Positions 19,055 through 45,863 of a stretch of DNA of 64,000 nt are shown in pieces. The position numbers and the translations under genes are program-made. The notes beneath the pieces are model-generated. The model searched no databases, was not told the DNA's origin, and saw only the letters and a program-made list of their open reading frames with translations. Every line of letters begins with the position of its first letter. Position 1 is the first letter of the stretch. Location: positions 173,255 through 237,254 of the forward strand of contig JAYFOZ010000001.1 of assembly GCA_034928305.1 (NCBI GenBank), written 5' to 3'. The DNA is from Methanomassiliicoccaceae archaeon. Lineage in GTDB: Archaea; Thermoplasmatota; Thermoplasmata; Methanomassiliicoccales; Methanomethylophilaceae.

Positions 19055-19071
19055 ATGGATGATATATCCAA
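19055..19071. promoter_or_regulatory. 17-nt palindromic operator copy (ATGGAT-GATAT-ATCCAA) abutting a TATA-like AAATTATATA
   Basis: Lies 42 nt upstream of the NifH-like start at 19113. Same motif as at 24233, 24293, 24341, 32493, 32575 and 45847. Confidence 0.55.
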
Positions 19072-19112
19072 TAAATTATATAGGCTTCTGTCAATCTGGA
19101 TGCCGGCCGGAA

Positions 19113-21260
19113 ATGTATCAGATAGCATTCTACGGGAAAGGAGGAATAGGAAAGTCGACCATGGCCGCAAACATATCGGTCGCCCTAGCGGGCAAGGGAG
19201 CCAGGGTGATGCAGATAGGGTGCGACCCCAAGCACGACTCGACAAGACTTCTTCTCGGGGGGCGGGTCCAGACGACGGTACTGGACTACGTGCGTGAAGT
19301 ACCGGCAGGAAAGAGAAAGATCGAAGATGTGATGATGAAAGGCACATCCGGGATACTGTGCATCGAGGCGGGAGGTCCCGAACCAGGCATAGGATGCGCG
19401 GGGCGCGGTATACTGACGGCGTTTGATACGCTGAAGAAACTGGGCGCAGACGACTACGACGTCGAAGTGAAGATTTACGACGTCCTCGGGGATGTGGTGT
19501 GCGGTGGTTTTGCAGTCCCGCTGAGGGGAGAGTATGCCGACGGAATAGTGCTGGTCACATCCGGCGAGTTCATGTCGTTATACGCCGCCAACAACATAAT
19601 GAAGGGGCTGACCAACTTTGACACAGGCAAACCCAGATTGATAGGAATCATACTCAATTCGCGCGGAGTGGAGGGGGAAGAGGAAACCGTCAGGCGGTTC
19701 GCCGAAGCCGCGGGGACCAAGATAATAGCGGTCATCCCCCGCCATAGGCTGTTCTATGAGGCCGAATCATCCGGCCATACGGTCCGCGAGATGTTCCCGA
19801 GTTCAAAGTTATCAGAAACGATGGATTCAGTGGCACAGTACGTCATCGACGTTCGCGATGGGAAGAACCAGGCGTCGTTTTCCCATCCGCTCAACGACGA
19901 CCAGATGTCGGACCTTGCGGCAGGACGCGAAATACGCAGAGGAACATGCGGAGAAGCACTGCGACCCAGATGTACGACGTGCAATCCCAGGACTTCTATC
20001 AAAGAATCGAAGATAATGAGCTCTTGCGCCGCATACGGGGCCGCAGCAGCATATCTCAAAATGAACGACGTGGCCGTAGTCCTCCACGGGCCGCTGAGCT
20101 GCGCGTATCTCATGGACACGGCGCGCGCCAAAGCAGTTCTCGAACTTTATGCGGGCGGAATATATTCTACGGATCCGAACCACAATCTTAGGTGCACGAT
20201 GATGGACGACAGCTCCTCCATATTCGGAGGGGTCGGGAACCTCGAAAGGACCCTGAGAGATACAATTGGGGAGGGATACAGGAAAATCGCAGTGGTAACA
20301 ACGTGTATGCCCGGCATCATCGGCGATGACAGTCTGACGGTGATAAAAAAGGTGATCGGGGATAACCCCGGGGTCAGCATCCATTATGTCCCGGCAGATG
20401 GGGACGTCAACGGCGAATTCACAGACGGATTCATGATGGCCGTCGAAAAAATAACGGAGACCATGGACACCTCGTTGGAGAAGGAGCGGGGCACGGTGAA
20501 CATCATAGGTACGTCATTTTTCGATCTTCATTCACTCAGGAACGCGAAAGAGGTGGAAAGGTTATTCTCCGCTTTCGGCCTAAAAGAGAACTGCAGGTTT
20601 CTGGACGAGACATCTTCGGAAGCTGTGGCAGGCTTTTGCAGAGGTCACATAGATCTGATGGTCAACGACTCCGCCACAACGAGGGAAATGGCCTCTATAA
20701 TAGAATCGAAGACCGAGAGGGTGGCGCTGTCCGTGCCGTTGCCAGTCGGTCTCCACGACTATGTGGAGTGGGTTCGCCAGATAGGAAAGATGATGGATCT
20801 GGAAGAGGAAGCGGAAAGAGAGATCGAACGGGCAGAATCGGATCACGAGGAGTTCATAGAGGCGCACAGTCGCCATTTCAGAGGCAGAAAGGTCATCGTA
20901 ATGAACAGGACGTCGCAGAATATCGATTGGCTGATCGACATGCTGATCTGGTTAGGAGCGGAAATTTGCAGGGTGGGATGTGTTCCCAGCGCTCGCAAGT
21001 CCGGGTCGAGATCCGCATCCCGCCACTCGGACATCATAATGTCGGATTACGACACGGACGACCTCAGACGTGACCTGGCTAACATGGACCCAGACCTTAT
21101 CATCGGTGAATTCACCGGGCCTATAGGGAGCAGGTGCCGTATATCCAGGATCGGAAAGATAGGCATAGGCATTCTCCCGACCAAAGAGTACGTCGAGTAC
21201 CTGGAAAATATAATGAGGCTTCCCCGGGAGGAAGGTTGGAAGGAGGGAAGGAAAGTATGA
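19113..21260 (+). CDS. nitrogenase-superfamily fusion: NifH/BchL/CfbC-like ATPase domain + NifD/BchN-like 'component 1' domain
   Basis: MYQIAFYGKGGIGKST, CDPKHDSTR, GGPEPGIGCAGRGI and DVVCGGFAVPLR, then in the same frame SSCAAYGAA, LHGPLSCAY and TTCMPGIIGDD. The ORF-track start 19032 adds 27 non-homologous residues and is rejected. Confidence 0.8.
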   Translation: MYQIAFYGKGGIGKSTMAANISVALAGKGARVMQIGCDPKHDSTRLLLGGRVQTTVLDYVREVPAGKRKIEDVMMKGTSGILCIEAGGPEPGIGCAGRGILTAFDTLKKLGADDYDVEVKIYDVLGDVVCGGFAVPLRGEYADGIVLVTSGEFMSLYAANNIMKGLTNFDTGKPRLIGIILNSRGVEGEEETVRRFAEAAGTKIIAVIPRHRLFYEAESSGHTVREMFPSSKLSETMDSVAQYVIDVRDGKNQASFSHPLNDDQMSDLAAGREIRRGTCGEALRPRCTTCNPRTSIKESKIMSSCAAYGAAAAYLKMNDVAVVLHGPLSCAYLMDTARAKAVLELYAGGIYSTDPNHNLRCTMMDDSSSIFGGVGNLERTLRDTIGEGYRKIAVVTTCMPGIIGDDSLTVIKKVIGDNPGVSIHYVPADGDVNGEFTDGFMMAVEKITETMDTSLEKERGTVNIIGTSFFDLHSLRNAKEVERLFSAFGLKENCRFLDETSSEAVAGFCRGHIDLMVNDSATTREMASIIESKTERVALSVPLPVGLHDYVEWVRQIGKMMDLEEEAEREIERAESDHEEFIEAHSRHFRGRKVIVMNRTSQNIDWLIDMLIWLGAEICRVGCVPSARKSGSRSASRHSDIIMSDYDTDDLRRDLANMDPDLIIGEFTGPIGSRCRISRIGKIGIGILPTKEYVEYLENIMRLPREEGWKEGRKV

Positions 21261-22528
21261 GGACCCTGCCCGACGGTTTCAACGGTGCCATCATGGCGGT
21301 AGAGAGCATAACCGACGCCATAGCTTTCCTGCACGGCCCAGGAGGATGCAGGGTAAGGCACATGGTCCATTCGACAGCCGTCTTTCCCCGCGAGGACCCT
21401 GGAGACAAGGATGGGTACGACATACCATATTTCTACAGCTACCCGAGGGTGCCAGCAACATATCTCGACGAATATGATTACATAAACGGTGCGGCGTATA
21501 AGTTATCGGAAGGACTGCATATAGTTTCATCCAAGAAGCCGGCCCTCGTAGTGATCATCGATTCACCGGGCGCGGGGCTCATCGGCGATAATCACGAAAA
21601 GGCCGTGTGGGAGCTCGGACTTGAATCCAAGGTCGTATGCATGGACGAATCCCTCATATCTATGCCGTTCACCATTTGCTACGGCCACACGCTCAGAGCA
21701 GTAGTGGAGAAGCTCGGACCGGAAAGAGGCCGCCGGGAGAAGAATACGGTCAATATAATCGGCCTGACCATCATGGATAAGGACTGGAGGGCCGCCGCGG
21801 ACGAGCTGCGGGGGCTGGTCGAGTCCATGGGCCTGAAAGTAAAGTCCGTTCCCGGTGCTGGAGCTTCCACCTCGGAGCTCCGCGACTCCGTTAATGCGGA
21901 ATACAGCATCGTGGTGTGCCCGGAGGCGTGTGCCGGCCTGTCCGAGCTTTACGAATCATATGGGGTGAAAGTGGTGCGCTCGGATGCGGGCGCCCCCGTA
22001 GGATTCGATGCCACCGAGAGATGGATAACGTCGATAGCGGAGGCTACGGGCAGGGACCCGACGTCGGCGCTGGGGTCCGTCCGCAGGGCGAAGGAGAGAG
22101 TATATGAGAAATTTGTCGGTACGAAGTATAATTCGCTGCGCATAAAAGGAATGTCATTTTCCGCAGCCGGCACGGCATCGGTCATAAGGTCGCTGACAGA
22201 GTGGCTCTATCATTATCTGGCCATGGCGCCGGTCGCGGTATCGGTAGATCCCGGGGCCGATAAAGACGAGGTCGAGGCGCTTAAGGTATTTTTGGATTCG
22301 GCAGGATACCCCGAATCTTTTGGCCGGGAACCGAGAGAAGGTTCGGGCGCAGTCTTCTGCGAAGGCATAACCGCCTACACGATGCTATTGAACGGCGGGT
22401 GCAGGATCGGAGTGCCCATCGGATATTCCTCGATGGGCCTTGACGACGTGATTTCTCGCCCGGTGTACGGGGTACAGGGCGCGATGTACATACTGGATGA
22501 GATCCTGCACGGCGTAAGGGGAAATTGA
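21257..22528 (+). CDS. NifK/BchB-like 'nitrogenase component 1' subunit
   Basis: ATGA overlap with the upstream stop. AVESITDAIAFLHGPGGC and VVIIDSPGAGLIGDN motifs. 423 aa. Confidence 0.7.
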   Translation: MRTLPDGFNGAIMAVESITDAIAFLHGPGGCRVRHMVHSTAVFPREDPGDKDGYDIPYFYSYPRVPATYLDEYDYINGAAYKLSEGLHIVSSKKPALVVIIDSPGAGLIGDNHEKAVWELGLESKVVCMDESLISMPFTICYGHTLRAVVEKLGPERGRREKNTVNIIGLTIMDKDWRAAADELRGLVESMGLKVKSVPGAGASTSELRDSVNAEYSIVVCPEACAGLSELYESYGVKVVRSDAGAPVGFDATERWITSIAEATGRDPTSALGSVRRAKERVYEKFVGTKYNSLRIKGMSFSAAGTASVIRSLTEWLYHYLAMAPVAVSVDPGADKDEVEALKVFLDSAGYPESFGREPREGSGAVFCEGITAYTMLLNGGCRIGVPIGYSSMGLDDVISRPVYGVQGAMYILDEILHGVRGN

Positions 22529-22594: not shown

Positions 22595-23350
22595 TCAGAT
22601 CTTTCTCGTCTTCAGCAGATAGTAGTCCAAAGCGAAGAATGCCAGACTGAACGCGGCCAACACCATCAGCGAAATCCATGGGAAATCCAAATAGCCGGGT
22701 AGCGCCGCGGCCCTTATGCACTCGCTGGCATGGGTCAGCGGAAGGCAATACAGCACTCCCTGGAAAATCGGGGACAGAGAAGAAACCGAAAAGAACGTTC
22801 CGCACAGAAATGTCATCGGAAGTATGATCAGGCTGTTGAAGGTCGCGAGGCTCTGATGAGATTTGGCCAGCAGCGCCGCGGACATGCCGAGGAAAGAGAA
22901 GGCCAGGCAGGACAAGATCACGCACAGCGCAAATAACGGCGAAAGTACGAGTTCCGGCGCCAGAAACAACCCGAGGGCGTAAATCAGGACACAGCTCATC
23001 AATCCCCTGAATATCCCAAGCACAGATTTTCCGAAAATAATGGCGGGAAGGCTCAAAGGGCACATCATCATTTCGTCAAAACTCTTGTAGTAGAGCCTCT
23101 GGACGTTCATTCTTGTGGACGTCGACGAGAATGACGACGAGAGGGAAGAGAGTGCAACGATACCCGGTATTACGAACGCAACGTACGATACTCCGATATC
23201 GGTCGTCCCCGTCCTGAGCCCGTATCCGAACGCGATAAGATACAGCAAGGGGCTCATGACGCTCATAACCAGAATGTTCAGGAAATTGTGCTTGATGAAC
23301 ATGAGGTCTCCCCAGGCAACGTAATACGTCTGCTTAAGGAAGCTGATCAT
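22595..23350 (-). CDS. ABC-2 type transporter permease
   Basis: 251 aa, 6 TM segments, 4-nt overlap with the upstream ATPase. Confidence 0.75.
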   Translation of the reverse strand: MISFLKQTYYVAWGDLMFIKHNFLNILVMSVMSPLLYLIAFGYGLRTGTTDIGVSYVAFVIPGIVALSSLSSSFSSTSTRMNVQRLYYKSFDEMMMCPLSLPAIIFGKSVLGIFRGLMSCVLIYALGLFLAPELVLSPLFALCVILSCLAFSFLGMSAALLAKSHQSLATFNSLIILPMTFLCGTFFSVSSLSPIFQGVLYCLPLTHASECIRAAALPGYLDFPWISLMVLAAFSLAFFALDYYLLKTRKI

Positions 23351-24207
23351 TTCTGTGCCCCCACGCTCTTTCCGGTGAGTTCTACGAATACGTCCTCAAG
23401 GTTGATGTTCCTTATCAGTACATTCTCTTCGCTATCGAGGGATGAGACGAAAGCCTTGGCCTCGTCCCTGCTCCGGAAATACTTATACTGGGTCCTTTTT
23501 TCGGCCATGTACTCGACCGCCGTCGAACCCATGGCATCGCAGAGCTTTTTGGGCTCATCCAATGCTATTACTTTGCCCTGGTCTATGATTCCGACCCTGT
23601 CGCACAGAGCCTCCGCCTCTTCTATGTAGTGAGTGGTCAGGAAGATCGTCGTGCCCTTTCGGTTGAGGGATCTGACTACATCCCATAGGAGGCGCCTTGC
23701 GTTGATGTCGAGGCCGGACGTGGGCTCGTCCAGGAACAGGACCTTCGGTTCATGCAAGACGGCGCAGACTATAGCCACTCTTTTCTTCCAACCTCCGGAA
23801 AGCGAATCAACGGGCATTCCGAGATATTCTTTTAGACCGAAGTAGTCCGAGAGCTCCTTGATTTTTTCGTTTCTCTCTTTCTTCGGCATCATATGGTACA
23901 TTGCGTGGGAGACCATGTTCTCCATAACGGTAAGGTCCTTGTCAAGGGAGATCTGCTGCTGTATGACCCCCATCCGATTCTTTGCCTCTGTCGGGTCCCT
24001 CTTGATATCGAAACCATCGACTGTGATGGTACCAGAATCATATCCGGTCAGTGTGGCGATGCACCTTACCGTCGTCGTCTTTCCGGCGCCGTTGGGCCCC
24101 AGGAATCCGAATAGCTCTCCGTGGCGGATCCTCAGATTCAAATGATCTACAGCCGTTTTCTCCCCGAATTTTTTGACAAGATCGTCAATGATGATGATAT
24201 CATTCAT
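23347..24207 (-). CDS. ABC transporter ATP-binding protein (ABC-2/DrrA-like)
   Basis: Walker A GPNGAGKTT, signature LSGGWKKR, Walker B LFLDEPTSGLD. Confidence 0.9.
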   Translation of the reverse strand: MNDIIIIDDLVKKFGEKTAVDHLNLRIRHGELFGFLGPNGAGKTTTVRCIATLTGYDSGTITVDGFDIKRDPTEAKNRMGVIQQQISLDKDLTVMENMVSHAMYHMMPKKERNEKIKELSDYFGLKEYLGMPVDSLSGGWKKRVAIVCAVLHEPKVLFLDEPTSGLDINARRLLWDVVRSLNRKGTTIFLTTHYIEEAEALCDRVGIIDQGKVIALDEPKKLCDAMGSTAVEYMAEKRTQYKYFRSRDEAKAFVSSLDSEENVLIRNINLEDVFVELTGKSVGAQK

Positions 24208-24232
24208 TTAATCAACTCGGGACAAAACATAG

Positions 24233-24249
24233 TTGGATTATATATCCAT
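24233..24249. promoter_or_regulatory. operator copy TTGGAT-TATAT-ATCCAT
   Basis: In the divergent intergenic region between the ABC-2 ATPase (24207) and the binding protein (24366). Confidence 0.5.
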
Positions 24250-24292
24250 ATCCTTTGCGTATTAGGTTAATCTAGAATACCGATTATTCGAT

Positions 24293-24309
24293 TTGGATGT
24301 ATAATCCAT
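24293..24309. promoter_or_regulatory. operator copy TTGGAT-GTATA-ATCCAT
   Basis: Same intergenic region. The central GTATA is identical to the copy at 32493. Confidence 0.5.
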
Positions 24310-24340
24310 CATTATTAAATACAATTTACATTATGTCGTA

Positions 24341-24357
24341 TTGGATGATACATCCAA
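24341..24357. promoter_or_regulatory. operator copy TTGGAT-GATAC-ATCCAA (perfect half-sites)
   Basis: Lies 9 nt upstream of ATG 24366 and downstream of the TATA-like ATTATTAAATA (24311-21). Confidence 0.55.
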
Positions 24358-24365
24358 GTGATCGA

Positions 24366-25694
24366 ATGGATATGAAAATCAAGATAATCACAATAGTCGC
24401 CGCGACGGCCGTCGTGGTCGGGGCGATTGGAGCGTATGCACTTCTCAACGACGCGGACGACGACAGCGTCTATGTCGATGCATCACTGGCGATAATGGGG
24501 AATGCCAATGAAGATTCTAAGATCGACCAGGACGACCTTGACATTATTGAAGAAATAATCAGTGGCGAGACGGACCCCGCCGACCACCCATTGGCCGACG
24601 CGAACAACGACGGAGACGTCGACCAGGAAGACGCGGACCTTCTTCGCGACATGATCGACCATAAATCCGGCATAACGATAAACGTGGTCTGTTCCAATGC
24701 CGACGGGACCCCGTATGTACAGGATATAACATATCCGCTCAGAAGCACGGTTGTCGTTGGGACGAACCTTCTCTCTACATGCATCCAGGTAGGCGCGGCA
24801 GACTATATCGTCGGTTACACAAAGACAAATTACGGTGTCGCCCACGCACCCGTGATAGATAACGCGACGTGCATCGGAGGGTCAATCTTCGATCTGAACA
24901 CTGACACCTCAATAACAAACTTCCAGAATCTAGACGCACAAAAGGGGATTGATGCAGTGATTACGATGCCCTCAGTTTCATATCTCAAGACGTCTGCGGC
25001 GTACATCTCCGGCGCGGGGATACCCATCCTCAGGATTGATTCCTCGGACGGAATGGATTCTGTCGGCGGAGCGCTCACAATCGGATACATCTACGGAAGC
25101 GAGACCGAGAAAACCTCTTACGAATTCGCCGAGCTCAGCTATGCGGTGCTGGAAGAAATCACAGAAAGAGTGAGTGGATTGGAAGAATCGGAGAAGAAGA
25201 CCTTCATGGCAATCACAATGGGATACTATATCAGCCAGACCGACTCCGCGTATACAGGGGTTTGCGAGTACGCAGGCGGAAGCACGGTGACGACGCTGGA
25301 GGGCACTGGTTCGGTCAAGATAAACGACGGCGACGAATATTATCTCAACTGGAGCCCCGACTACATAATCAGCTTCAGGACGCTGGATTATTCGATTGAC
25401 TACACCGATATCTCAAGCAACAGCACGAAGACCCCGCAGGAAACATGGGACCAGTATTCCGGTTATTTCGACATGATGGGAGAGTCGTATGAAAACCTGG
25501 TGTACATCAACACCAGCATGCCTGTGACTTGCAGGATGGCATACATCGCCGAGATATTCTACCCAGACCTCTTTGAAGAGGGGTACGGGGACAGCGTGCA
25601 CCAGCAGTTTGTGGACAATTATATGGGGTATCTCGGTGACTTCGATGTCACCAAGGACATGACCACGATGATAACCTATGCGGATGTGTCATAA
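24366..25694 (+). CDS. membrane-anchored substrate-binding protein of a type-II ABC importer (Fe-siderophore/B12/heme class) with an N-terminal dockerin-like module
   Basis: TM anchor KIKIITIVAATAVVVGAIGAYALL. Two Ca-binding-type repeats: NANEDSKIDQDDLDIIEEII and DANNDGDVDQEDADLLRDMI. The remainder resembles Peripla_BP_2. Start chosen at MDMKIK. Confidence 0.65.
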   Translation: MDMKIKIITIVAATAVVVGAIGAYALLNDADDDSVYVDASLAIMGNANEDSKIDQDDLDIIEEIISGETDPADHPLADANNDGDVDQEDADLLRDMIDHKSGITINVVCSNADGTPYVQDITYPLRSTVVVGTNLLSTCIQVGAADYIVGYTKTNYGVAHAPVIDNATCIGGSIFDLNTDTSITNFQNLDAQKGIDAVITMPSVSYLKTSAAYISGAGIPILRIDSSDGMDSVGGALTIGYIYGSETEKTSYEFAELSYAVLEEITERVSGLEESEKKTFMAITMGYYISQTDSAYTGVCEYAGGSTVTTLEGTGSVKINDGDEYYLNWSPDYIISFRTLDYSIDYTDISSNSTKTPQETWDQYSGYFDMMGESYENLVYINTSMPVTCRMAYIAEIFYPDLFEEGYGDSVHQQFVDNYMGYLGDFDVTKDMTTMITYADVS

Positions 25695-25731
25695 ATGGGA
25701 GTATTCCCCCTCTTTTTTTGAGAGTGATCAC

Positions 25732-26529
25732 ATGGAGATGAAGGCCGTCGATCTGGGTTTCAGGTATTATGATAATGTGATATTGAGCGATGTCAACGTA
25801 GACCTCGAAGGCAACAAAATGGTGTCGATAATAGGTCCCAACGGAGTCGGAAAGACCACGCTCATTCACTGCTTCAGTAAGATACTGAAGCCCACAGACG
25901 GACGGGTGTATGTAAACGGAAAAGATATCGAAGATTACAAACTGAAGGAACTGGCTAAAATAATCGCATACGTCCCGTGCACTTCGCTGGACACATTCCC
26001 CCTGACCGTAACGGACACGGTTCTTTTGGGAAGAAATCCCCACAGTAAATGGGGGTCCCTGAACAGGGACCTGGAGAAGGTGCAGGAGACATTGCGGCTG
26101 CTGGGGATCGAGGATCTTGCCATGAGACCTTTCAACGAGCTTTCGGCAGGGCAACGTCAAAAAGTGGTGCTCGCCAGAGGGCTCGTGCAAGAGTCCCAGA
26201 TATTGCTTCTGGACGAACCCACGGCGAACCTGGACATCAAACACCAAATGGGCGTTACCAGATTGCTGCGTGACTACTCGCACAAGCAGGGCATAATGGT
26301 GATAATGATCAGCCATGACCTCAACATCGCTGCAAAGTATTCTGACGAAGTCATCATGTTGTACGGGGGGAACATATTCGCCAAGGGGTCGCCGAAGGAC
26401 ACAATCAATCCGGAGAACATAGAGGCTGTGTACGGTGTCAGGTCGAAAACCGTCATCAATAACGGTCGGCCGCATGTGATCCTCGAAGATGACGACGACC
26501 CGAAAACAAACATCTGCGCGGGTGCTTGA
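25732..26529 (+). CDS. ABC importer ATPase (FepC/BtuD-like)
   Basis: GPNGVGKTT, LSAGQRQKVVLARGL, LLLDEPTANLD, and the H-loop ISHDL. Confidence 0.9.
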   Translation: MEMKAVDLGFRYYDNVILSDVNVDLEGNKMVSIIGPNGVGKTTLIHCFSKILKPTDGRVYVNGKDIEDYKLKELAKIIAYVPCTSLDTFPLTVTDTVLLGRNPHSKWGSLNRDLEKVQETLRLLGIEDLAMRPFNELSAGQRQKVVLARGLVQESQILLLDEPTANLDIKHQMGVTRLLRDYSHKQGIMVIMISHDLNIAAKYSDEVIMLYGGNIFAKGSPKDTINPENIEAVYGVRSKTVINNGRPHVILEDDDDPKTNICAGA

Positions 26530-27607
26530 ATTGCCTGACGAAAAGGGGCTCGTCGAGGCATACCGTCACAATCTGTTCCTCAAAGTCGTTTTCATAATAT
26601 CATGCTTCGCCGTGCTTATGCTGGTCATAGGTTACTCCCTGGCGGTCGGCCAGGGAATCACCGTGTCAGAGTCGTACGAGATAATGATGAAACATCTTGC
26701 CGGAGAGATATATCCGCTCAGGTCCGAAATGTGGTGGAAGGACTACTTCATCTGGAACAATGTGATGCCTCGCGTGGTCGTCGGAATAATAGGCGGCTGC
26801 GGTCTGGCTGCATGTGGAGCCGTCATGCAGAGCATCATGAGCAATCCTCTGGCCGATCCCTACACCACGGGGATATCTTCAGGTGCCTGCTTCGGTGCGG
26901 TGGCATCCCTGATAGCAGGAGTCTCGTTCGCATCGCTGGGCAGCGGATACACCACCGTGACCAATGCTTTCATAGGCGCATTGGTTCCGACTATGATCGT
27001 CATACTGATAAGCAGGCGCATAAACGCGACCCCCGCAACACTGATTCTGATAGGGGTCGCGATATCTTACTTCTTCAATGCGGCCGTGACTCTCATGATG
27101 GTTACTGCGACCGCCGAGGATCTGCAGGCCGCATATCTCTGGCAGGTCGGAACCCTGACAGGCATGACATGGAGCAGCGTACCGCTGATGCTGGTCATAA
27201 CGGCGGCGGGTTCCGCCGTGGCGATGCTGTTTTCCAAAAACATGAATCTGCTCACGATGGGAGAGAACAGCGCAAAGAGCATGGGTCTGGACGTTGAACA
27301 GTTCAGAATGCTGTGCTTGATTATGGTGGCGGTAATGACGGCTGCCATCGTGAGTTTCACAGGCATACTGGGTTTTGTAGGTCTCATATCCCCTCACATC
27401 ACCAGGCTGGTGATAGGTTCGGACAACAGGGTGGTCATTCCCGCTTCCATGATTGTCGGCGCGCTGATGCTGGTCTCATGCGATCTCATCTCGCGTTTGG
27501 TGTCAAATATTACAGACATCCCCGTTGGCGTGGTCCTGTCCTTGCTGTGCAGCCCGATATTCCTGCTGATGGTGACCGGATTAAAGAGAGGGAGGGGCGT
27601 GTACTGA
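26489..27607 (+). CDS. FecCD/BtuC-family permease, subunit 1
   Basis: 372 aa, about 10 TM segments. Motifs RVVVGIIGGCGLAACGAVMQ and NPLADPYTTGISSGA. Confidence 0.85.
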   Translation: MTTTRKQTSARVLELPDEKGLVEAYRHNLFLKVVFIISCFAVLMLVIGYSLAVGQGITVSESYEIMMKHLAGEIYPLRSEMWWKDYFIWNNVMPRVVVGIIGGCGLAACGAVMQSIMSNPLADPYTTGISSGACFGAVASLIAGVSFASLGSGYTTVTNAFIGALVPTMIVILISRRINATPATLILIGVAISYFFNAAVTLMMVTATAEDLQAAYLWQVGTLTGMTWSSVPLMLVITAAGSAVAMLFSKNMNLLTMGENSAKSMGLDVEQFRMLCLIMVAVMTAAIVSFTGILGFVGLISPHITRLVIGSDNRVVIPASMIVGALMLVSCDLISRLVSNITDIPVGVVLSLLCSPIFLLMVTGLKRGRGVY

Positions 27608-28674
27608 TGGTTCATGAGCAGATCTATGGATTCGTGGAGAAGTATTGCCACGAGAATCACAAGAAAATCGTTTTTACAATAACCTGTCTGATACTAGCCA
27701 TATTTGTCTTTTTCCTGACAATCTCCATCGGAAAATACGAGCTGTCTTTCGGCGAGTCGTATAGGATATTTGTCGACAATCTTTTCGGAAACGGTCAGGC
27801 TACAACAGAGAACATGATCATCTGGGAATACCGTGTCCCCCGAGCCCTCATGGGCATATTCGTCGGGGCATCGCTGGCAGTGGGCGGCGCGGTCATGCAG
27901 AACCTGATGATGAACCCGCTTGCGGAACCGTATACCATGGGCATTTCGTCCGGTGCCTTCCTCGGTGCCGTGCTGTCGATAACATGCGGTATATCCATCA
28001 TCCCGTTCCTCGGCGGAGACGACGCCACGGTATTGAACGCATTCATCCTTTCGCTCGCGCCGGTATTTCTGATCGTAGCAATATCCAAATTCAGAAAGAC
28101 CACGCCTACGACCATGATACTGTGCGGGGTGGCCATAATGTACGCATTCAGTTCGGTATCGACGATGCTGATGGTCTTGGCGGACCCTGAGCATCTCTCG
28201 GACGCATATTCGTGGCGCGTCGGAGTCCTCGGTAAGGCCTCGTGGGACAGCCTGATGCTGGTAACTCCCTCGATGACGATCCTCATTGCGATATTGTTAC
28301 TCTTCGCGGGAAAGATCAATACGATGTCCATAGGAGACAAGGGAGCAATCTCGCTGGGCACAGACCCATACCGGACCAGGCTCGTCTGCCTGGTCCTGGT
28401 CGCGTTGCTTACGGCATTCGCTGTCAGCTTCACCGGCACGATCGGATTCGTCGGCCTCGTGGCCCCACATATAGTCAGGACGTTCATTGGATCGAACAAC
28501 ACGTATCTTCTGCCGGCATGTGCGGGATTCGGAGGCATATTCCTCCTTGTGATGGACTCAATAGCCAAAGTGATAAGCGAGACCGGGCTACCCGTAGGTG
28601 TCATATCCGCGATGGTCGGGGGCCCCCTCTTCATATACATACTGGTACAGAGGAAGCGCAGGATATGGTACTGA
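27607..28674 (+). CDS. FecCD/BtuC-family permease, subunit 2
   Basis: TGATG overlap start (MVHEQIYG..). Motifs RALMGIFVGASLAVGGAVMQ and NPLAEPYTMGISSGA. The ORF-track start 27313 is rejected. Confidence 0.85.
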   Translation: MVHEQIYGFVEKYCHENHKKIVFTITCLILAIFVFFLTISIGKYELSFGESYRIFVDNLFGNGQATTENMIIWEYRVPRALMGIFVGASLAVGGAVMQNLMMNPLAEPYTMGISSGAFLGAVLSITCGISIIPFLGGDDATVLNAFILSLAPVFLIVAISKFRKTTPTTMILCGVAIMYAFSSVSTMLMVLADPEHLSDAYSWRVGVLGKASWDSLMLVTPSMTILIAILLLFAGKINTMSIGDKGAISLGTDPYRTRLVCLVLVALLTAFAVSFTGTIGFVGLVAPHIVRTFIGSNNTYLLPACAGFGGIFLLVMDSIAKVISETGLPVGVISAMVGGPLFIYILVQRKRRIWY

Positions 28675-28685
28675 TCATCCAACGT

Positions 28686-28720
28686 CCGGGGAAAAGCGGG
28701 GCAATGGCCCCGTACCCCGG
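28686..28720. terminator. nested GC hairpin between the convergent permease and cobN
   Basis: CCGGGG...GGGGC-AATG-GCCCC...CCCCGG. Confidence 0.3.
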
Positions 28721-28740
28721 ACGGCCACATATATACAGGC

Positions 28741-31700
28741 TCAGCGGTCGTTGACCTCTTCGATACGCTCTTCCAGGCCCAGGAATATTTCCTTCATTTT
28801 CTCGAGTGTTTTCGGGTCGGCGTCCCACATACCCCTGTCGCAGGCCTCCATGAGGCGGTTCATCATGTCCATCATGGCGTGAGGATTTTCGTCCTTCATC
28901 CATTCGCGCGTATCGTCGTCGAACAGATACTTCTCGGCAAGCTTCTCGTACATCCAGTCATCTACTGTTTCGGAAGTGGCGTCCCATCCGAACATGTATT
29001 CAGTAAGGTTGGCTACCTCTGCAACCCCCCTGTAACCGTGCCGTTTCAACCCCTCTATGAATTTCGGATTTAGCACTTTGCTCCTGAAAACGAACTGAAG
29101 CTCTTCTCTGGTGCTTCTCAACCTAACCTTGTCGGGATTCGAACCGTCGCCGATCAAAGATATCGCGTCCTTTTTGCCGTATGCTCTCACAAAAGAGTTG
29201 AGCCCTCCGAGATACCCGTACACATCATCCATGTCCAGCACGTCGATCTCCCTGTCCGGCATATTCTTCACGGTCACGCCGACCTTGCCGAACCTCTTGA
29301 CGAACTGGTCCCTCATGCTCTCTCCGGTCATGCCGCGCCCGTAAGCATAGCTCCCCCAGGTGATGTAGATGTCAGCAAGGTCCTGCACGGTCTTCCAATC
29401 GCCAGTTTCCACGGCGTGGTTAACGCCAGGGCCATACCCTCCCGGCGGGCAGCCGAAAATGCGCACAAGGCCCTCCTTTTTGACCTGTTCCGCCGGCAGT
29501 CCCTTCTCTATTCCCTCTACGATATCTCTGCGCAGGTTCGCCGCTAGGTAGTTTTCTTCTTCGGACTCGTCCAGGCCGGCCGCCATTTTTACTGCGTCGT
29601 CTATCAGGTCGATAAGGTTAGGGAAAGTATCCCTGAACAATCCCGTGATGCGGACGGTCACGTCTATGCGTGGTCTCCCCAGCTCAGACAGGGGAACGGG
29701 CTCCAGCCCGACGACCTGCCCGCCAACATTGGACCACACGGGCCTTATGCCCATCAGCCATAGTATATAAGCGACGTCGTCGCCGTTGGTCTTCATGGTA
29801 TCGGTCGCCCATATGATGAAACCGACCTCGCGGGGATAGTGCCCCGTTTCGTCAATATAGCGTTCGACCATCTGGTCGGCCATCTTTTTACCGATCTCCC
29901 AAGAGGAAGGCGGAGGGACGATGTCCGGATCGATGCCGTAATAATTCCTGCCCATCGGAAGTATATGGGCGTTCCCCCTGGTTGGGGCTCCAGAAGGGCC
30001 CGGGAGGACGTAACCTCCGTTACACCCATGGATAAGATTGTCCATTTCGTCAGTCATCCTCATGATGTTCCTTGCCAGGGAATCGCAGATATAGGCTATC
30101 GAAGACCCGAAGCCAGGTGACATGCCTCCGGCCGCCTCTTCCGCAAGTCTCATGCAGCTGTCCTTTTCATAATCAGCGCATCTCATTGCGGTCAGCAGGT
30201 CAAGCAGGTCTTTTTCCAGAGAATCGATAACAACGGAGTTCAGCTCGCCCTCGCGGACCTCGGATGGATTGTCGAGAAGGACATCCATATTGTATCCCCG
30301 TACCTCTGCAAAAGAATCTCTGAGCGAGGGGACGTCTCCGTTTTTCAATCTCATGATGGAATATATCATCTCGTCGAAACGGTCTCCTTCCGGGGCCCTC
30401 CCCAGTATATGGAGCCCGTCCCGGATCAACGCATCTCTGATATCCGTAAGATATGCGTGCAGATCGTCGAGGCGGCCTTCGAATTCCTCCGCAGAAATGT
30501 TTTCGGAAATATCCAGGTCCCCAAACATTTTGGCTTCGCGGACGCCGTTCAAAACACGCTCTACAAGCGCCATTCTCTTTCCGTCGCTGGAATTCCTCGC
30601 TTTGAAGTATTCCTGCAGAGCGTTATCAATCGCGGACAACTCGTCGTACGAGCCCGCCCGAGCCATCGCAGGGCACATGTGCCCTATAAGCACGGCCTCA
30701 GAACGCCTCTTGCACTGAATTCCTTCTCCAGGATCGTCGATGATGTATGGATAGATGTGCGGGATCCCGTCGAGCACGATGTCCGGAAAGCATTTCGAAG
30801 ACAATCCGACACTCTTGCCAGGGAGCCACTCCAGAGTTCCGTGCGTCCCCATATGAAAGACGATGTCCGTTCCAAAGTCGAACTTGAGCCATCTGTAAAA
30901 CATCAGATATTGATGGGGCATCGGCACCACGGGATCATGATAAACAGACTCCATCTGGTTGGCCCAAGATCTCAGGGGCTGATAACCGATGAATATGTTG
31001 CCGTTCAGCAGGCCGGGGATAACGAATTTGCCGTCTTCGACGCATATAGTTCCGGGAGGCTTTCCCCAATTTTCTTCCATCAGCCGTCTGTTGAACTCGG
31101 ACAGTTCCGAGTAGTACCGCCTATATTCCCTCAGGTCGGCCATGTCTGCAGCCTTTTCCCTCACTCTTTCGGGGGAAGACCATTCAAGGTCGTTCGTGAT
31201 ATTGTCCAAAATCTCATCGATAAGGGCCCTTCCGTTCAGGGGCACGTGATTCACGGTATAGCCCTGCCTGTCGAATCTTATGAGCATGTCGTTCACACTT
31301 TCGATGGTGTCGAGGCCCGCAGCGTTCCCTATGCGCCCCGATTCCGGACGGGATTGATACATCAGAATTGCAACCTTACGCTCGGAGGCTGGTTTCATGG
31401 ACAGTTTGGCCCAGCATTTTACTGCGTTGGAAAGATGCTCTATCCTGTCCTCTACCGGAGAATACCTCTTCGTTCCGCCCAGGCATCCCTCGTTGCTACC
31501 GATCGGCACGGTGATGATCTGACCGTCGACCTCCGGCCAGACCACGCTCATCTTCAGTTCGCCGTTGCTCAGTCCGGAAGCGCTCTCTTCGTAATCTGAA
31601 AAGTGGCCGCCCACCGTCATGGCCTGTATGACCGGGACGTCCGTCAGGTAATGATAGAAGTTCTGTTCATCGGGAGTGTAGATGCCCGTGCAGTCTCTGG

Positions 31701-32492: not shown

Positions 32493-32509
32493 TTGGATGT
32501 ATAAGCCAA
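32493..32509. promoter_or_regulatory. operator copy TTGGAT-GTATA-AGCCAA (cobN side of the divergent promoter)
   Basis: Lies 12 nt upstream of the cobN start 32481, between it and the TATA-like TTTATTTATAT (minus strand). Confidence 0.5.
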
Positions 32510-32574: not shown

Positions 32575-32591
32575 TTGGATATATGAGCCAA
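32575..32591. promoter_or_regulatory. operator copy TTGGAT-ATATG-AGCCAA (chlI side)
   Basis: Lies 17 nt upstream of ATG 32608, just after the TATA-like TTTATTATA. Confidence 0.5.
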
Positions 32592-32607: not shown

Positions 32608-33633
32608 ATGGACAGATTACTTTTCCCGTTCGTCTCGATCGTAGGTCAAAAAGAAATGAAAAAAGCACTGCTGCTCAACGTTGTGGACCCGAGCATCGGA
32701 GGCGTACTCATAAAGGGTGAAAAGGGAACGGCGAAATCGACGGCCGTCAGATCGCTTTCGCAGATCCTTCCCTGGCGTATGTCGGCGGAGGGATGCGCGT
32801 TCAACTGCGACCCTTCGTTGCCCGGCAGGCTGTGCCCCTACTGCAAAGAGAAGATCCTTTCAGGAAAGGACCTGAGGTCCGTAAATGTCAGAATGAGGGT
32901 TGTGGAACTCCCTCTGAGCGCCACGGAGGATCGAGTCTCGGGCACTCTGGATATCGAACACATCCTCAAGACGGGGGAAAGGAAGTTCGATCCCGGAGTA
33001 CTTGCACAGGCCAACGGGAATGTGCTCTATATAGACGAGGTGAACCTTCTGGACGACCACATCGTAGATCTATTGCTCGATTCAGCGGCAATGGGAGTCA
33101 ATTATGTGGAAAGAGAAGGGGTCTCCTTCTCTCATCCTTCTAGATTTATTCTGGTTGGTACGATGAATCCGGAGGAGGGGGACCTCAGACCGCAGCTTTT
33201 GGACAGGTTCGGGTTGTCCGTCGAAGTAAAAGGGGACAGAGACACCGACGAACGCATGGAGGTCGTCCGAAGAAGGCTTGAGTTCGACACAAACCCGGAA
33301 AAATATACTGAAAAATACGGGGCAGAGTCGGAACAGCTGACGTCCAGGCTGTCAAAGGCCCGGGAAATCCTTCCGGACGTTTCGGTGGACGACGATGTTC
33401 TGAGAGCGATAGTGAACATGACGATAAACCTGGGCATCGATGGCCACAGGGCAGATATCACAATGGTTAAAGCGAGCAAGGCCAACGCTGCCATGGACGG
33501 GAGGGTCCGCGTAACCAAAGAGGACGTCAGGGAGGCGGCCCCTCTGGCACTTTCTCATCGTATGCGGCGGCGCCCGTTCGAGGAAGAAGCATTCGACAAA
33601 GAGGAACTCGACAGATGTATGCAGACTATATGA
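32608..33633 (+). CDS. chlI: ChlI/BchI-like AAA+ chelatase subunit
   Basis: FPFVSIVGQKEMKKALLLNVVDPSIGGVLIKGEKGTAKST, Walker B LYIDEVNLLDDHIVD, GTMNPEEGDLRPQLLDRFG. Confidence 0.9.
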   Translation: MDRLLFPFVSIVGQKEMKKALLLNVVDPSIGGVLIKGEKGTAKSTAVRSLSQILPWRMSAEGCAFNCDPSLPGRLCPYCKEKILSGKDLRSVNVRMRVVELPLSATEDRVSGTLDIEHILKTGERKFDPGVLAQANGNVLYIDEVNLLDDHIVDLLLDSAAMGVNYVEREGVSFSHPSRFILVGTMNPEEGDLRPQLLDRFGLSVEVKGDRDTDERMEVVRRRLEFDTNPEKYTEKYGAESEQLTSRLSKAREILPDVSVDDDVLRAIVNMTINLGIDGHRADITMVKASKANAAMDGRVRVTKEDVREAAPLALSHRMRRRPFEEEAFDKEELDRCMQTI

Positions 33634-35510
33634 GCGGGCTTCCTTTCACTGCCATATATGGCATGGACGACCCGAAAAAAGCAGTGCTTTGCTCCATGGT
33701 CAACCCCCGCATACGTACGGTTCTGATAATGGGATGTTCGGGATCTGCAAAGACTGCTCTTTCCAGGGCGACGGGCGCCCTGATGGGCAGGGAGGTCGTG
33801 AACGTGCCACTCAATGTTACAGAGGAGCAGCTGTTTGGCGGAATGGACATCGAGGCCACCCTCAGAGAGGGAAGGCCCGTGGTACAGAATGGGATCATGC
33901 ACCGGGCAGACGGGAAGATACTGTACGTAGATGACATAAATCTCCTAGATCAGAAGATCGCCGCGGCACTGACCGACTGCATACTGAACGGAAAGGTGGT
34001 TCTGGAAAGAGAAGGAATATCCGCCGAGTACGAATGCAAAATCACCCTGATCGCAACGATGAACCCGCTGGGTCCCGAAATGAGCTCGCATCTGACCGAC
34101 CGTTTCGATCTGTGCGCATACTCTGTCTTTCCCGAGGATGAGAGCGGAAGAAAAGAGGTGCTCCGCAGGAATATAGAATATCAAAAAGGAGCCGCATCGT
34201 TCTCCGAAATGTACGGGGATGAGGAATCTTTGCTCAGGTCTAAGGTCGAGAGGGCCCAATCTATTCTTCCCATCGTAAAGATGTCCGACGACCTTTTGGG
34301 CGTAATCGTCGAGCTCGCCGCAAAGGTATCCGCAGAAGGTTTCCGCGGCGACCTGGCAATAATCAACGCCTCCATGGCTCTGGCAGCCCTCAACGGACGG
34401 GACGAGGTAACCAGAAAGGATGTGGAAGAGGTGGCGGCACTGTGCCTGGTTCACCGCCGCAATACTTCTCCCGAACCTCCGGAGCGGCGGGAGCAGGAGC
34501 AGGAGCAGGAGGGACAAGATGAAGAAAGGGAGCCTCGCAGAGACGAAGGGCAGCGGCAGGAAAGCAATGGAGAGGGACAAGATCACGGGGCCGAAGAACC
34601 GCCCGATCGGGGTGAGAGCTCCGACTCCGAGGAACCGGGCCCCGAACGGACGGCAGAGGATATCCTTTTCGAAGTCGGAGAGCAGTTCAGAGTTATCGAC
34701 TATATTCACGGGACCGGTCGCAAGGTCCGAAAGACATCTAGCAGAAAGGGCCGCAGAGAGGCCGCAGAAAGTTCGGACACGACAGGAAGATACATATGTT
34801 CCAGGTGTCCGGAAGGGAAAGCCAAGGACATTGCGTTAGATGCAACCATTCGTGCTGCGGCACCGTATCAGAGGTCCAGAGATCATGGAGATCTTGCGAT
34901 ATCGATAAATGGCCAGGATATCAGAGAGAAGGTTCGTGAAAGGCAATCCGGATGCACGATATTATTCCTTGTCGACGCCAGCGGTTCTCTGGGCGTCAGA
35001 AAGAGAATGTCAGCGGTAAAGGGCGCAGTCCTCTCGATGCTTCAGGACAGCTATGTAAAAAGGGACAAGGTGGGGCTGATGGCGTTCAGACGTGATTCTG
35101 CCGAGTTGATACTGCCGCCTACCAGGTCCGCGGAGTACGGGTATAGGAAACTGGCGGAGATGCCCACCGGGGGGAAGACCCCGCTCGCCGAGGCCCTGGT
35201 TTCGGCCGGAAAGGTCATGACATCGTATTCCAGGTCGCACCCAGGGGAGATGTGTTACATCGTGGTCATCACAGACGGCCGCGCCAACGTTCCGATCGAT
35301 CGGGGCGCCGACGCCAACGAAGAGGTGATCAAACTGGCATCGAAGATGTCCATACCCCAGGTGGACTGGATCGTAATCGATGCCGGCTCCGGATATGTCC
35401 GTTTTGATAACGCCGAAAAGCTGGCAATGGAACTCGAGGGCACATACTTCAGGCTGGACGATCTGAACTCGGACAGGCTGGCAGAGAATATCAGAGCGGT
35501 CATCAGATAA
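33615..35510 (+). CDS. chlD: ChlD/BchD-like chelatase subunit (degenerate AAA+ domain, acidic/Pro linker, vWA domain)
   Basis: Degenerate P-loop GCSGSAKT. Linker PEPPERREQEQEQEGQDEEREP...SDSEEPGPE. vWA MIDAS motif LFLVDASGSLG. Confidence 0.85.
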   Translation: MYADYMSGLPFTAIYGMDDPKKAVLCSMVNPRIRTVLIMGCSGSAKTALSRATGALMGREVVNVPLNVTEEQLFGGMDIEATLREGRPVVQNGIMHRADGKILYVDDINLLDQKIAAALTDCILNGKVVLEREGISAEYECKITLIATMNPLGPEMSSHLTDRFDLCAYSVFPEDESGRKEVLRRNIEYQKGAASFSEMYGDEESLLRSKVERAQSILPIVKMSDDLLGVIVELAAKVSAEGFRGDLAIINASMALAALNGRDEVTRKDVEEVAALCLVHRRNTSPEPPERREQEQEQEGQDEEREPRRDEGQRQESNGEGQDHGAEEPPDRGESSDSEEPGPERTAEDILFEVGEQFRVIDYIHGTGRKVRKTSSRKGRREAAESSDTTGRYICSRCPEGKAKDIALDATIRAAAPYQRSRDHGDLAISINGQDIREKVRERQSGCTILFLVDASGSLGVRKRMSAVKGAVLSMLQDSYVKRDKVGLMAFRRDSAELILPPTRSAEYGYRKLAEMPTGGKTPLAEALVSAGKVMTSYSRSHPGEMCYIVVITDGRANVPIDRGADANEEVIKLASKMSIPQVDWIVIDAGSGYVRFDNAEKLAMELEGTYFRLDDLNSDRLAENIRAVIR

Positions 35511-43145: not shown

Positions 43146-43184
43146 TGGAACAATTCTTTAAGGTCGCCCGTCTATCTGTCCACC

Positions 43185-45047: not shown

Positions 45048-45422
45048 ATGAACTGGGATATGCTGACCATCGTAGCATGCGTTGCCGCAGGAGGTGCGAT
45101 AGGAGCGGTACTGAGGTACTTGGTCGGGCATTATATGGGCACGTCCGCATTTCCCTGGAGTACGTTCCTTATAAATATCATCGGATGCACGCTACTGACG
45201 TTCATCGCATTCTCATTCAGCGGCCACATGTCGAAAAATACCGTATTTTTCCTGTTCACCGGAGTGTTCGGTGCATTCACTACAATGTCGACCTTCACAT
45301 CGGAAACGGTATATCTGTTCTACGACAACGAAATTATGAAGGCCGCTTGGAACGTAGTCCTCAATGGAGGAGGATGTCTCCTCGGAGCGTTCATCGGAAG
45401 GGCCCTGTCGCTTCTGATGTAA
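45048..45422 (+). CDS. crcB: fluoride ion channel CrcB/FluC
   Basis: 124 aa, 4 TM segments, GGAIGAVLRY and GAFTTMSTF motifs. Confidence 0.9.
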   Translation: MNWDMLTIVACVAAGGAIGAVLRYLVGHYMGTSAFPWSTFLINIIGCTLLTFIAFSFSGHMSKNTVFFLFTGVFGAFTTMSTFTSETVYLFYDNEIMKAAWNVVLNGGGCLLGAFIGRALSLLM

Positions 45423-45846
45423 TCATTTTTTTATAAGGCGGGCGTGGCACTCCGACATCCGCAGTACACCCGTCGGTGCATTGCCCGGTATGTCTTTCAA
45501 TGAACAATCTATCGTCGACCCAGCCATATCCGATTCTCCGGATCAGAGCACCGTCTTTGGTTACACGTAAATGTCATTACGACCAGTATTTAGATAGGAC
45601 ATTATGGCTGCAACGGTAGTTTCGCATCTATTTCGCAACTTGTTTTTTGTGGCCATAAATCAGCAGAACCTTATGGTACCAGGCGACGGAAAAAACGCTC
45701 TTCTGCCATCATGGATATCTCTATTGTCAGATCAAGACAACCGGACGTCACGATCTCCCCCGTCAATAAACCGAAAGCAAATTTCCCCTCTGAAACCGAA
45801 AAACATATGTTGCGAATCAAGGAAGAACAAGTTACAATTCATCAGG

Positions 45847-45863
45847 TTGGATGATTCATCCAA
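45847..45863. promoter_or_regulatory. operator copy TTGGAT-GATTC-ATCCAA (perfect half-sites) abutting the TATA-like GGTATAAAT
   Basis: About 60 nt upstream of the DUF4430-like gene. Differs from the 24341 copy at 2 of 17 positions, both within the 5-nt spacer (GATTC versus GATAC). Confidence 0.55.

Follow-up and report, generated by a model that had tools for sequence, protein, structure and literature searches.

The stretch studied here, hereafter the window, comprises 64,000 nucleotides (nt) of contig JAYFOZ010000001.1 (GenBank assembly GCA_034928305.1) of a Methanomassiliicoccaceae archaeon and carries seven copies of a palindrome, TTGGAT-N5-ATCCAA, in front of genes for a nitrogenase-like reductase, transporters and chelatase subunits. 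A class I lysyl-tRNA synthetase, topoisomerase VI and promoters of the TATA type mark the window as archaeal. The six transcription units that carry the seven sites are as follows (positions are those of the window; aa, amino acids).

19113..22528, plus strand: operon 1, NifH+NifD-like fusion protein (715 aa) and NifK/BchB-like protein (Pfam)
22595..24207, minus strand: operon 2, ABC-2 exporter, ATPase at 23347-24207 and permease at 22595-23350 (Pfam)
24366..28674, plus strand: operon 3, 442-aa secreted binding-type protein, ABC ATPase and two FecCD permeases
28741..32481, minus strand: gene 4, cobN, large chelatase subunit of the CobN type, 1246 aa (Pfam)
32608..35510, plus strand: operon 5, ChlI-like and ChlD-like AAA+/vWA chelatase subunits (Pfam)
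45923..51817, plus strand: operon 6, second importer (Pfam, NCBIfam)

The palindrome and the promoters that carry it

The first-pass annotation, made by eye from the sequence, had reported seven copies of the palindrome, all of them intergenic. All seven are present at the positions listed below with zero or one mismatch, while dinucleotide-preserving shuffles give 0.26 copies per window and a maximum of 2; all seven lie outside genes, although non-coding DNA makes up only about 9-10% of the window. A scan allowing two mismatches added no site, though about four were expected by chance. The sites score as follows in a 19-nt weight matrix trained on 57 distinct sites from the window and related loci (BRE, B recognition element).

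19055..19071, 23.6 bits: site 1, ATGGATGATATATCCAA, directly against the TATA-like TAAATTATATAG on its upstream (BRE) side; 41 nt separate the site from the ATG (19113) of the nifH-nifD fusion gene
24233..24249, 21.6 bits: site 2, TTGGATTATATATCCAT, 25 nt upstream of the ATG at 24207 (minus strand) of the ABC-2 operon
24293..24309, 23.3 bits: site 3, TTGGATGTATAATCCAT, just upstream of the TATA-like ATTATTAAATAC of the binding-protein/importer operon
24341..24357, 26.1 bits: site 4, perfect, TTGGATGATACATCCAA, between the TATA-like ATTATTAAATAC and the ATG at 24366
32493..32509, 24.8 bits: site 5, TTGGATGTATAAGCCAA, cobN promoter, minus strand; TATA (AATTTATTTATA), then immediately the site, 11 nt, cobN ATG (32481)
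32575..32591, 19.3 bits: site 6, TTGGATATATGAGCCAA, chlI-chlD promoter; TATA (TTTATTATAG), 14 nt, the site, 16 nt, chlI ATG (32608)
45847..45863, 28.0 bits: site 7, perfect, TTGGATGATTCATCCAA, directly against the TATA-like AGGTATAAAT on its upstream side; the ATG (45923) of the second importer operon follows 59 nt after the site

The matrix consensus, R-TTGGAT-K-W-W-W-M-ATCCAA-Y, corresponds to a 7-3-7 palindrome, TTGGATG-WWW-CATCCAA, which is a better description of the element than TTGGAT-N5-ATCCAA. The window sites reach 19-28 bits, and when weaker copies were sought across the 64 kb none turned up, the rest of the window staying below 10 bits; block shuffles yield 0.66 matches. Each site spans 17 bp with 3-5 nt between the halves, the half-site centres are 10-11 bp apart, and the flanks are near random in the matrix alignment. 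The excess of the palindrome is real and far above chance, and the element is almost certainly a transcription-factor operator. An Rfam scan of the whole window at gathering thresholds returned tRNAs only and no cobalamin riboswitch (RF00174).

The TATA boxes were picked out by eye and from the AT content, and the positions of the sites relative to the promoters are inferred from the sequence. Two classes of geometry can be discerned. In the first, the site lies between the TATA box and the start codon, 8-16 nt from the latter (24341, 32493 and 32575); the site at 24341, 8 nt from its start codon, would cover the expected transcription start, and the placement of the cobN and chlI sites between TATA and start codon, claimed earlier, is confirmed. 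In the second class (19055, 24293 and 45847) the TATA box follows the site after only 0-4 nt, which puts the site on the BRE side. At 24233 the TATA box is ambiguous, being either the TATATA of the spacer of the site itself or TAACCTAATA farther upstream. The position relative to TATA is not uniform. Every site appears to overlap the core promoter, either at BRE/TATA or in the space between TATA and start, and in sequence and AT profile this is the position expected of a promoter-occluding repressor operator. Unusually long non-coding stretches precede two of the site-bearing promoters: for the nifHD-like gene, 370 nt at 18660-19030 that look G+C-rich by eye, and for the second importer, about 425 nt at 45422-45846; neither contains a convincing open reading frame (ORF) or an Rfam match.

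As to the products of the six units, the gene labels of the first-pass annotation were right in outline according to Pfam and NCBIfam, except for the DUF4430 label of a 258-aa secreted protein in operon 6, which has no DUF4430 match in Pfam even at E 0.05 and shows weak similarity (E 0.003) to secreted proteins adjoining DUF4443 genes (see below). The other products of this operon are a BtuF-like protein (Peripla_BP_2), a beta-propeller-FecCD permease fusion and an ABC ATPase; the propeller region is homologous (E 2e-26) to the propeller protein of an operon for energy-coupling factor (ECF) transport and DUF4430 proteins at L168 (comparison loci are referred to by L numbers). Operon 3 encodes a BtuCD-type importer (Pfam), the synteny of which is conserved in relatives; its 442-aa binding-type protein matches no Pfam family. 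CobN clears the cut-off of the NCBIfam cobaltochelatase CobN equivalog TIGR02257 (916 versus 822 bits), and the best NCBIfam model for ChlI and ChlD is TIGR02442, 'putative cobaltochelatase'. In NCBIfam, the NifH-like part of operon 1 does not reach the cut-offs of CfbC and NifH, and the model nearest to the second subunit is BchB of the dark-operative protochlorophyllide oxidoreductase; by these scores operon 1 is predicted to encode a nitrogenase-like reductase that belongs to an uncharacterised clade and has a tetrapyrrole as its probable substrate. The NifH-NifD fusion is kept in relatives, including Methanospirillum. The listed NifK-like ORF overlaps the end of the fusion gene by 127 nt, and its true start is probably located downstream.

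Conservation of the sites and content of the regulon

The closest relatives of the CobN protein are found in Methanomassiliicoccales metagenome-assembled genomes (MAGs) of gut and rumen, the best one, from MAG UBA72, being 91% identical. In 37 loci around CobN relatives, about 0.6 Mb in total, there are some 100 matrix matches, which precede cobN, chlI, nifHD-like, ABC-2, binding-protein and ABC-ATPase genes. The 50 mapped matches with at most one mismatch are all intergenic after over-extended ORF starts are discounted, and the motif never occurs inside confirmed coding sequence. A site is present at 23 of 37 CobN-type promoters, 13 of 16 chlI promoters and 12 of 16 binding-protein promoters, these denominators including paralogues, operon-internal genes and loci from outside Methanomassiliicoccales. 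Thus, the phylogenetic footprinting that had been suggested as a check shows the motif kept at orthologous promoters in most of the Methanomassiliicoccales loci fetched, and it supports the inference, made initially from the window, that these operons form one system under the joint control of a dimeric transcription factor.

The promoter layout is kept as well. The CobN-type promoters with a site (n = 23) have a median of 11 nt from the end of the site to the ATG and AT-rich DNA upstream of the site, and at three loci the cobN ATG overlaps the last bases of the site (...CCAATG). The chlI promoters with a site are laid out as in the window, with a median of 15 nt to the ATG. For the five nifHD-like promoters counted (the window, L004, L005, L006 and L014), which all keep the site-then-TATA order, the median from site to ATG is about 41 nt, and the 12 nt downstream of the site are 78% AT; the nifHD-like promoter of L036 has the same order but was left out of the count, its flank being too short at the end of the locus. 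Site 2 has counterparts at the equivalent position in L006, L011, L022 and L033, and in L053 a BtuF461 homologue is preceded by two sites. A block at window 24200-29100, which holds the importer operon and the 3' end of cobN, is about 100% identical at the DNA level to its counterpart in L006 (UBA72 contig DAVO01000030.1), whereas its flanks on both sides reach only 77-91%; either the importer was recently recombined or transferred between two lineages that differ at the species level, or the MAG contig is chimeric.

Methanomicrobiales/Methanospirillum loci L024-L026 and L031 have no site at all, although they harbor the same CobN-NifK-NifHD-ABC-ChlDI cluster, which indicates that the motif tracks the lineage, and hence the regulator, rather than the genes. 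Likewise, a third FecCD-type importer (binding protein/FecCD/ABC; L173 3337-6460), located outside the window, close to its right end, on a public contig that is 100% identical to window 51476-64000 and reaches 8.6 kb past that end, lacks a site, so the motif is not a generic feature of importers.

Other loci of relatives extend the scope of the regulon. Among the CobN loci, L033 has a 26-bit site with cbiD-cbiG on one side and, on the other, a pair of genes, a tetrapyrrole methylase gene and cbiK. Further loci come from a public metagenome scan for the perfect 7-3-7 form (pattern TTGGATGWWWCATCCAA). Most of the 120 loci returned matched by chance or through conserved coding sequence from abundant bacteria (for example, HSP90 'WMKHP'), and about 20 are informative. 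Three sites precede cobD-cbiB-cbiZ-cobS-cobY, an operon of corrinoid salvage and nucleotide-loop assembly, in L077. In L126, L137 and L148 a site precedes genes of secreted beta-propeller and DUF4430 proteins with an ECF transporter. In L168-170, a DUF4443 locus (see below), sites likewise precede an operon encoding DUF4430, beta-propeller and ECF (CbiQ, S component) proteins. Since the targets include genes of salvage and loop assembly, which have no metal substrate, together with a cobaltochelatase-type CobN, the regulon, as read from its gene content, likely concerns corrinoids and not nickel or iron. The operator is also carried by genes of surface proteins with Sel1 repeats and BspA-type leucine-rich repeats (LRR) in three lineages (L015 14218; L028 14184; L012 6950 and 16205), which are unexpected members for a corrinoid regulon.

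To our knowledge, archaea have no B12 riboswitches, and the control of corrinoid synthesis and uptake in archaea has been an open question since the first comparative-genomic surveys. Our literature search found no archaeal corrinoid-responsive regulator described, and a search on the half-site strings returned only primers and unrelated matches. The role of archaeal CobN homologues is stated to be unknown (PMC12583661, PMC6460266), a recent review says the same of the function of the archaeal CobN/ChlID paralogues (PMC12583661), and the function of the nitrogenase-like enzyme found in this context is likewise called unknown in a recent review (PMC13474568).

DUF4443 proteins as candidate regulators

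The gene that immediately precedes the L137 site encodes a protein of 195 aa, which combines a winged helix like that of CggR with a DUF4443 domain. A tblastn search with this protein revealed homologues in L059, L096 and L140, three loci of the motif scan that had previously been taken for chance matches; in each of them the palindrome lies 10-25 nt before the DUF4443 gene, which is divergent from a gene of a secreted protein. A profile search retrieved 388 members of the DUF4443 family, including those of Micrarchaeota and Methanomassiliicoccales. In a prospective test, four Micrarchaeota-type DUF4443 loci were picked by protein homology alone (L162, L163, L164/165 and L175/176); in the 9-17 kb of flanking DNA each has exactly one site, of 28.5-29.5 bits, and this sole site is at the 5' end of the DUF4443 gene. 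Altogether, the perfect palindrome stands at the start of the DUF4443 gene in seven Micrarchaeota-type loci. The divergent gene of L162 encodes an alpha/alpha-toroid joined to a DUF4430 domain, which corresponds to the two-domain layout of transcobalamin.

In Methanomassiliicoccales, the DUF4443 gene of L168-170 follows metK and is itself followed by an intergenic region with sites of 24.7 and 12.8 bits, downstream of which the beta-propeller, DUF4430, CbiQ, ABC and ECF-S genes form an operon as in L137. Thus, two Methanomassiliicoccales lineages (L137 and L168-170) have the DUF4443 gene right before an uptake operon that carries a site, and physical linkage between this family and the palindrome is found there as well as in the seven Micrarchaeota-type loci. 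We regard the link as strong in Micrarchaeota and as good, but indirect, in Methanomassiliicoccales.

The segment GxGEGxxRT of the helix-turn-helix (HTH) is invariant in Micrarchaeota-type and Methanomassiliicoccales members. The AlphaFold model (pLDDT 89) consists of a CggR/MarR-like winged HTH and a small alpha/beta C-terminal domain of about 100 aa, which in a fold search resembles only the GAD insertion of aspartyl-tRNA synthetase and is uninformative as to the effector. The top fold match of the model is PH0730 of Pyrococcus horikoshii (PDB 2P8T), a member of the same family by sequence (E 2.6e-25), which shares with the candidate regulator the HTH signature GEGSVRT. Unlike the Micrarchaeota loci, however, PH0730-type genes of Thermococcales precede pyrF and have no TTGGAT palindrome nearby. 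No function for DUF4443 or the PH0730 family was found in our literature search.

We therefore propose, with a probability of roughly 0.6, that the palindrome is the operator of a homodimeric winged-helix factor, a repressor of the DUF4443 family, which controls a regulon of corrinoid (cobamide, B12-type) acquisition in Methanomassiliicoccales. In the organism of the window the operator is probably bound by a putative DUF4443 protein encoded outside the window. A DUF4443 dimer would bind the 17-bp site, the half-site centres of which are one helical turn apart; at sites between TATA and start it would block recruitment of RNA polymerase, and at BRE-side sites it would exclude transcription factor B (TFB). 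The position of the sites over the core promoter is the reason for considering the factor a repressor. Occupancy of the operator would be set by an effector bound to the C-terminal domain, so that a signal of corrinoid sufficiency would shut all six units of the window (the reductase, the ABC-2 exporter, the two BtuCDF-type importers, CobN and ChlID), and in relatives the operons for biosynthesis and salvage (cbi/cob) and for uptake (ECF/DUF4430) would respond likewise.

As for the signal itself, we put forward only tentatively, and against somewhat unfavourable odds, that a corrinoid is the direct effector. It is the most economical guess; cobalt or a signal related to S-adenosylmethionine (SAM) are alternatives, the latter because DUF4443 genes of Methanomassiliicoccales are usually co-transcribed with metK. 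The broader notion that in both Methanomassiliicoccales and Micrarchaeota DUF4443 proteins are repressors that sense corrinoids directly, and so the archaeal protein counterpart of the bacterial B12 riboswitch, is less likely than not.

Several observations weigh against this proposal. The window, its 8.6-kb extension and all 37 CobN loci lack a DUF4443 gene. The family as such occurs in Methanomassiliicoccales in general; the named DUF4443 matches belong to Methanomassiliicoccaceae or unclassified Methanomassiliicoccales, none being shown to be of the Methanomethylophilaceae type, to which the window seems to belong. Most of the Methanomassiliicoccales DUF4443 loci (L158-161, where the gene follows metK, and L171-172, where it does not) have no site nearby. 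The same is true of the Thermococcales DUF4443 genes, despite their identical HTH signature, so that a conserved HTH does not by itself prove a shared DNA specificity, and several roles within the family are probable. The C-terminal fold, similar to the GAD insertion mentioned above, gives no hint of a corrinoid site. Finally, repression is deduced solely from the position of the sites, and those upstream of TATA (the nifHD-like operon and the second importer) could serve activation instead.

We also considered and rejected autoregulation as a family-wide property of DUF4443 proteins, in view of the Thermococcales loci and most Methanomassiliicoccales loci without a site; not all members of the family are linked to the motif. 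In Thermococcales (Thermococcus kodakarensis, L166; Pyrococcus abyssi, L167) the genes downstream of DUF4443 are always pyrF, one with a PUA domain and one resembling cytidylyltransferases, and in P. abyssi the DUF4443 gene is also near pyrB/pyrI, which hints at a different role of this branch, possibly related to pyrimidines.

Alternative explanations and known systems

According to one alternative, operator and repressor are the same but the signal is a metal (cobalt, iron or nickel) and not a corrinoid: CobN and ChlID would be chelatases or dechelatases harvesting metal from imported tetrapyrroles or inserting it, as HmuS/BtuS do with heme, and the regulator would be a metal sensor, either a DUF4443 protein with a metal site or a member of another family. 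Heme, siderophores or B12 are the cargo of FecCD/BtuF-type importers, the cobaltochelatase gene cbiK is among the targets, and in gut Bacteroidota the CobN-like HmuS/BtuS do remove iron from heme for iron supply (PMC12583661, PMC6460266). Nevertheless, this explanation is rather unlikely, as the targets cbiZ, cbiB, cobS, cobY, cobD and DUF4430 are specific to corrinoid assembly or salvage and have no metal substrate, while the Fe-S and cysteine genes at 36-40 kb, like the third FecCD importer, are devoid of sites. Furthermore, DtxR/IdeR or Fur boxes are 19-bp palindromes of the TTAGGTTAGCCTAACCTAA or GATAATGATAATCATTATC type, and the site does not resemble them when compared by eye.

Another alternative concerns the sign of regulation. 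A dual regulator of the TrmBL1/Tgr or SurR type, acting in a position-dependent manner, would repress cobN, chlI and the importer, where the site is downstream of TATA, and activate the nifHD-like operon and the second importer, where it is upstream; control of the nitrogenase-like reductase and of the chelatase would then run in opposite directions. The site-then-TATA order at nifHD-like promoters, kept in at least five lineages, and the TATA-then-site order at cobN/chlI in many more are in line with such a rule, which is established for TrmBL1/Tgr, the operator of which has the same 6-5-6 layout. Yet the upstream sites, being 0-4 nt from TATA, cover the BRE, which normally excludes TFB rather than recruiting it, the binding-protein promoter has sites of both kinds, and opposite control of genes that are always clustered would be less economical. 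We consider a dual regulator quite unlikely and retain repression by a DUF4443 protein.

Regarding other regulators, the first-pass annotation had listed NikR, the Rrf2 protein and winged-helix factors in general as candidates; DUF4443 was not among them. The TetR (2619), Rrf2 (40135) and NikR-like (52898) genes of the window were rejected, as none has a site on its own promoter; no alternative palindrome was found on these promoters either. The Rrf2 gene follows a nifS-nifU-cysK operon, and its product scores as CymR/IscR-like (NCBIfam). No transcription-factor gene adjoins any site in the approximately 0.6 Mb of CobN loci, where the unannotated neighbours of sites turned out to encode Sel1-repeat, BspA-LRR and binding proteins, cbi products and AAA ATPases. 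A MEDS-PAS protein encoded beside the L053 sites has no DNA-binding domain and occurs once. An HTH_3-CBS regulator encoded beside metK-DUF4443 is missing from the Micrarchaeota loci and has a conserved palindrome of its own, TATTCATATGAATA, which is located between the divergent HTH_3-CBS gene and metK in Methanomassiliicoccales (L137 1964-2128, L158 4668-4799, L160, L161 and L168) and is probably the operator of that regulator.

Binding of the palindrome by the NikR-like protein (52898-53281), with a regulon answering to nickel, might be suggested by its NikR_C domain and by the proximity of its gene, which is also in the 64-kb window and just 1 kb away from the second importer, but it is very improbable. 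Described NikR operators are inverted repeats of 27-28 bp, built as 7-N13/14-7, with 13-16 nt between half-sites (PMC545781). Even if half-sites of 6-7 nt and spacings of 11-16 nt (two DNA turns between centres) are allowed, they differ from the site here, which is 17 bp with half-site centres 10-11 bp apart, in agreement with the earlier remark that NikR operators have longer half-site spacing. Besides the lack of a site on its own promoter, the protein is below every NCBIfam NikR cut-off (50 bits versus 83-175), the identical palindrome stands by DUF4443 in the Micrarchaeota loci with no NikR-family gene among the called genes where these are annotated with Pfam, and no known nickel gene is found among the targets, which are cobaltochelatase-type, corrinoid and importer genes; NikR operators stand before genes of nickel uptake or nickel enzymes and often before nikR. 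Judged from its scores, the NikR-like protein is a divergent member of the family. The AT-rich promoter of the third importer contains repeated GTTAC/GTTAA words reminiscent of NikR-type half-sites (GTGTTAC), and this importer may be a target of the NikR-like protein.

The suggestion that the palindrome acts as RNA, i.e., as a 7-bp hairpin in 5' leaders (an attenuator, a processing signal or a protein-binding site), or is a mobile or recombination repeat, has next to no probability: the 7-3-7 palindrome is able to fold as a hairpin, several copies lie between TATA and start codon, and an unrelated metagenome contig of GC 0.35 has eight copies in a regular array with 63- or 126-nt spacing (L114 2407-4343; a repeat that happens to contain the motif), but three of the window sites and all nifHD-like sites are upstream of TATA and so would not be transcribed with the gene, one site serves both directions in divergent regions, the half-sites are conserved in sequence, with single changes that disrupt pairing (AGCCAA versus TTGGAT), and neither a flanking conservation expected of a mobile element nor a match to an Rfam family was found.

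One more feature of the window, apart from the regulon, is a weak and short tRNA-like match at 11463-11521 (31 bits, just above the Rfam cut-off; ARAGORN makes no call), which adjoins two genes, one for a Schlafen-type helicase and one for a membrane protein of unknown family; the match may represent part of a tRNA left where an element integrated.

In general, the interest of the element lies in what it controls and in the function it suggests for an uncharacterised family. Compared with the first-pass annotation, the corrinoid regulon, the order-specific rather than cluster-specific nature of the motif and the DUF4443 candidate are new. A defined operator and a named candidate regulator with an existing crystal structure (2P8T) provide a lead, and the regulon can be read genome-wide in an order of gut and rumen methanogens. 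Growth of Methanomassiliicoccales depends on corrinoid methyltransferases. By guilt of association, the archaeal CobN/ChlID paralogues and the nitrogenase-like enzyme are placed in corrinoid metabolism; if DUF4443 proteins do sense corrinoids, CobN/ChlID and the reductase could be involved, for example, in late cobalt insertion or in the reduction or remodelling of salvaged corrinoids. The same operator in Micrarchaeota of the DPANN group, beside transcobalamin-like surface proteins, suggests how vitamin scavenging is tuned in these archaea with reduced genomes.

Among the known systems, the Thermococcales glycolytic motif (TGM, TATCAC-N5-GTGATA), bound by TrmBL1/Tgr, is likewise a 17-bp 6-5-6 palindrome present at many promoters of one metabolic regulon in one archaeal order, with a position relative to BRE/TATA that differs between targets and is conserved per gene. 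However, the half-site here is TTGGAT(G) and not TATCAC/GTGATA, so that the TGM/TrmB half-site is absent, the candidate binder DUF4443 does not belong to the TrmB family, and corrinoids take the place of sugars. The repressors MDR1, LrpA, Phr, NrpR and TrmB resemble the proposed factor in having operators between TATA and start or over the BRE, in tandem sites and in presumed steric exclusion of RNA polymerase or TFB, but none of them is known to recognise this sequence, and the family proposed here is without a characterised member. The NikR operator is also a palindrome of a metal-homeostasis regulon, and a nikR-like gene is nearby; its 27-28 bp differ from the 17 bp with 3-5 nt between half-sites found here. 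The bacterial B12-riboswitch regulon, as reconstructed by comparative genomics by Rodionov and co-workers, reportedly includes cbi/cob, BtuFCD/ECF uptake, DUF4430 and CobN-like genes. By this gene list, the same kinds of genes are co-controlled in both cases, by leader RNA (RF00174) there and by a DNA palindrome on the promoter here, and the window has no such riboswitch. Because the defining features of the NikR, TGM and riboswitch classes were tested and not found, the element is excluded from all three, and it is a new operator-regulator pair of a familiar kind.

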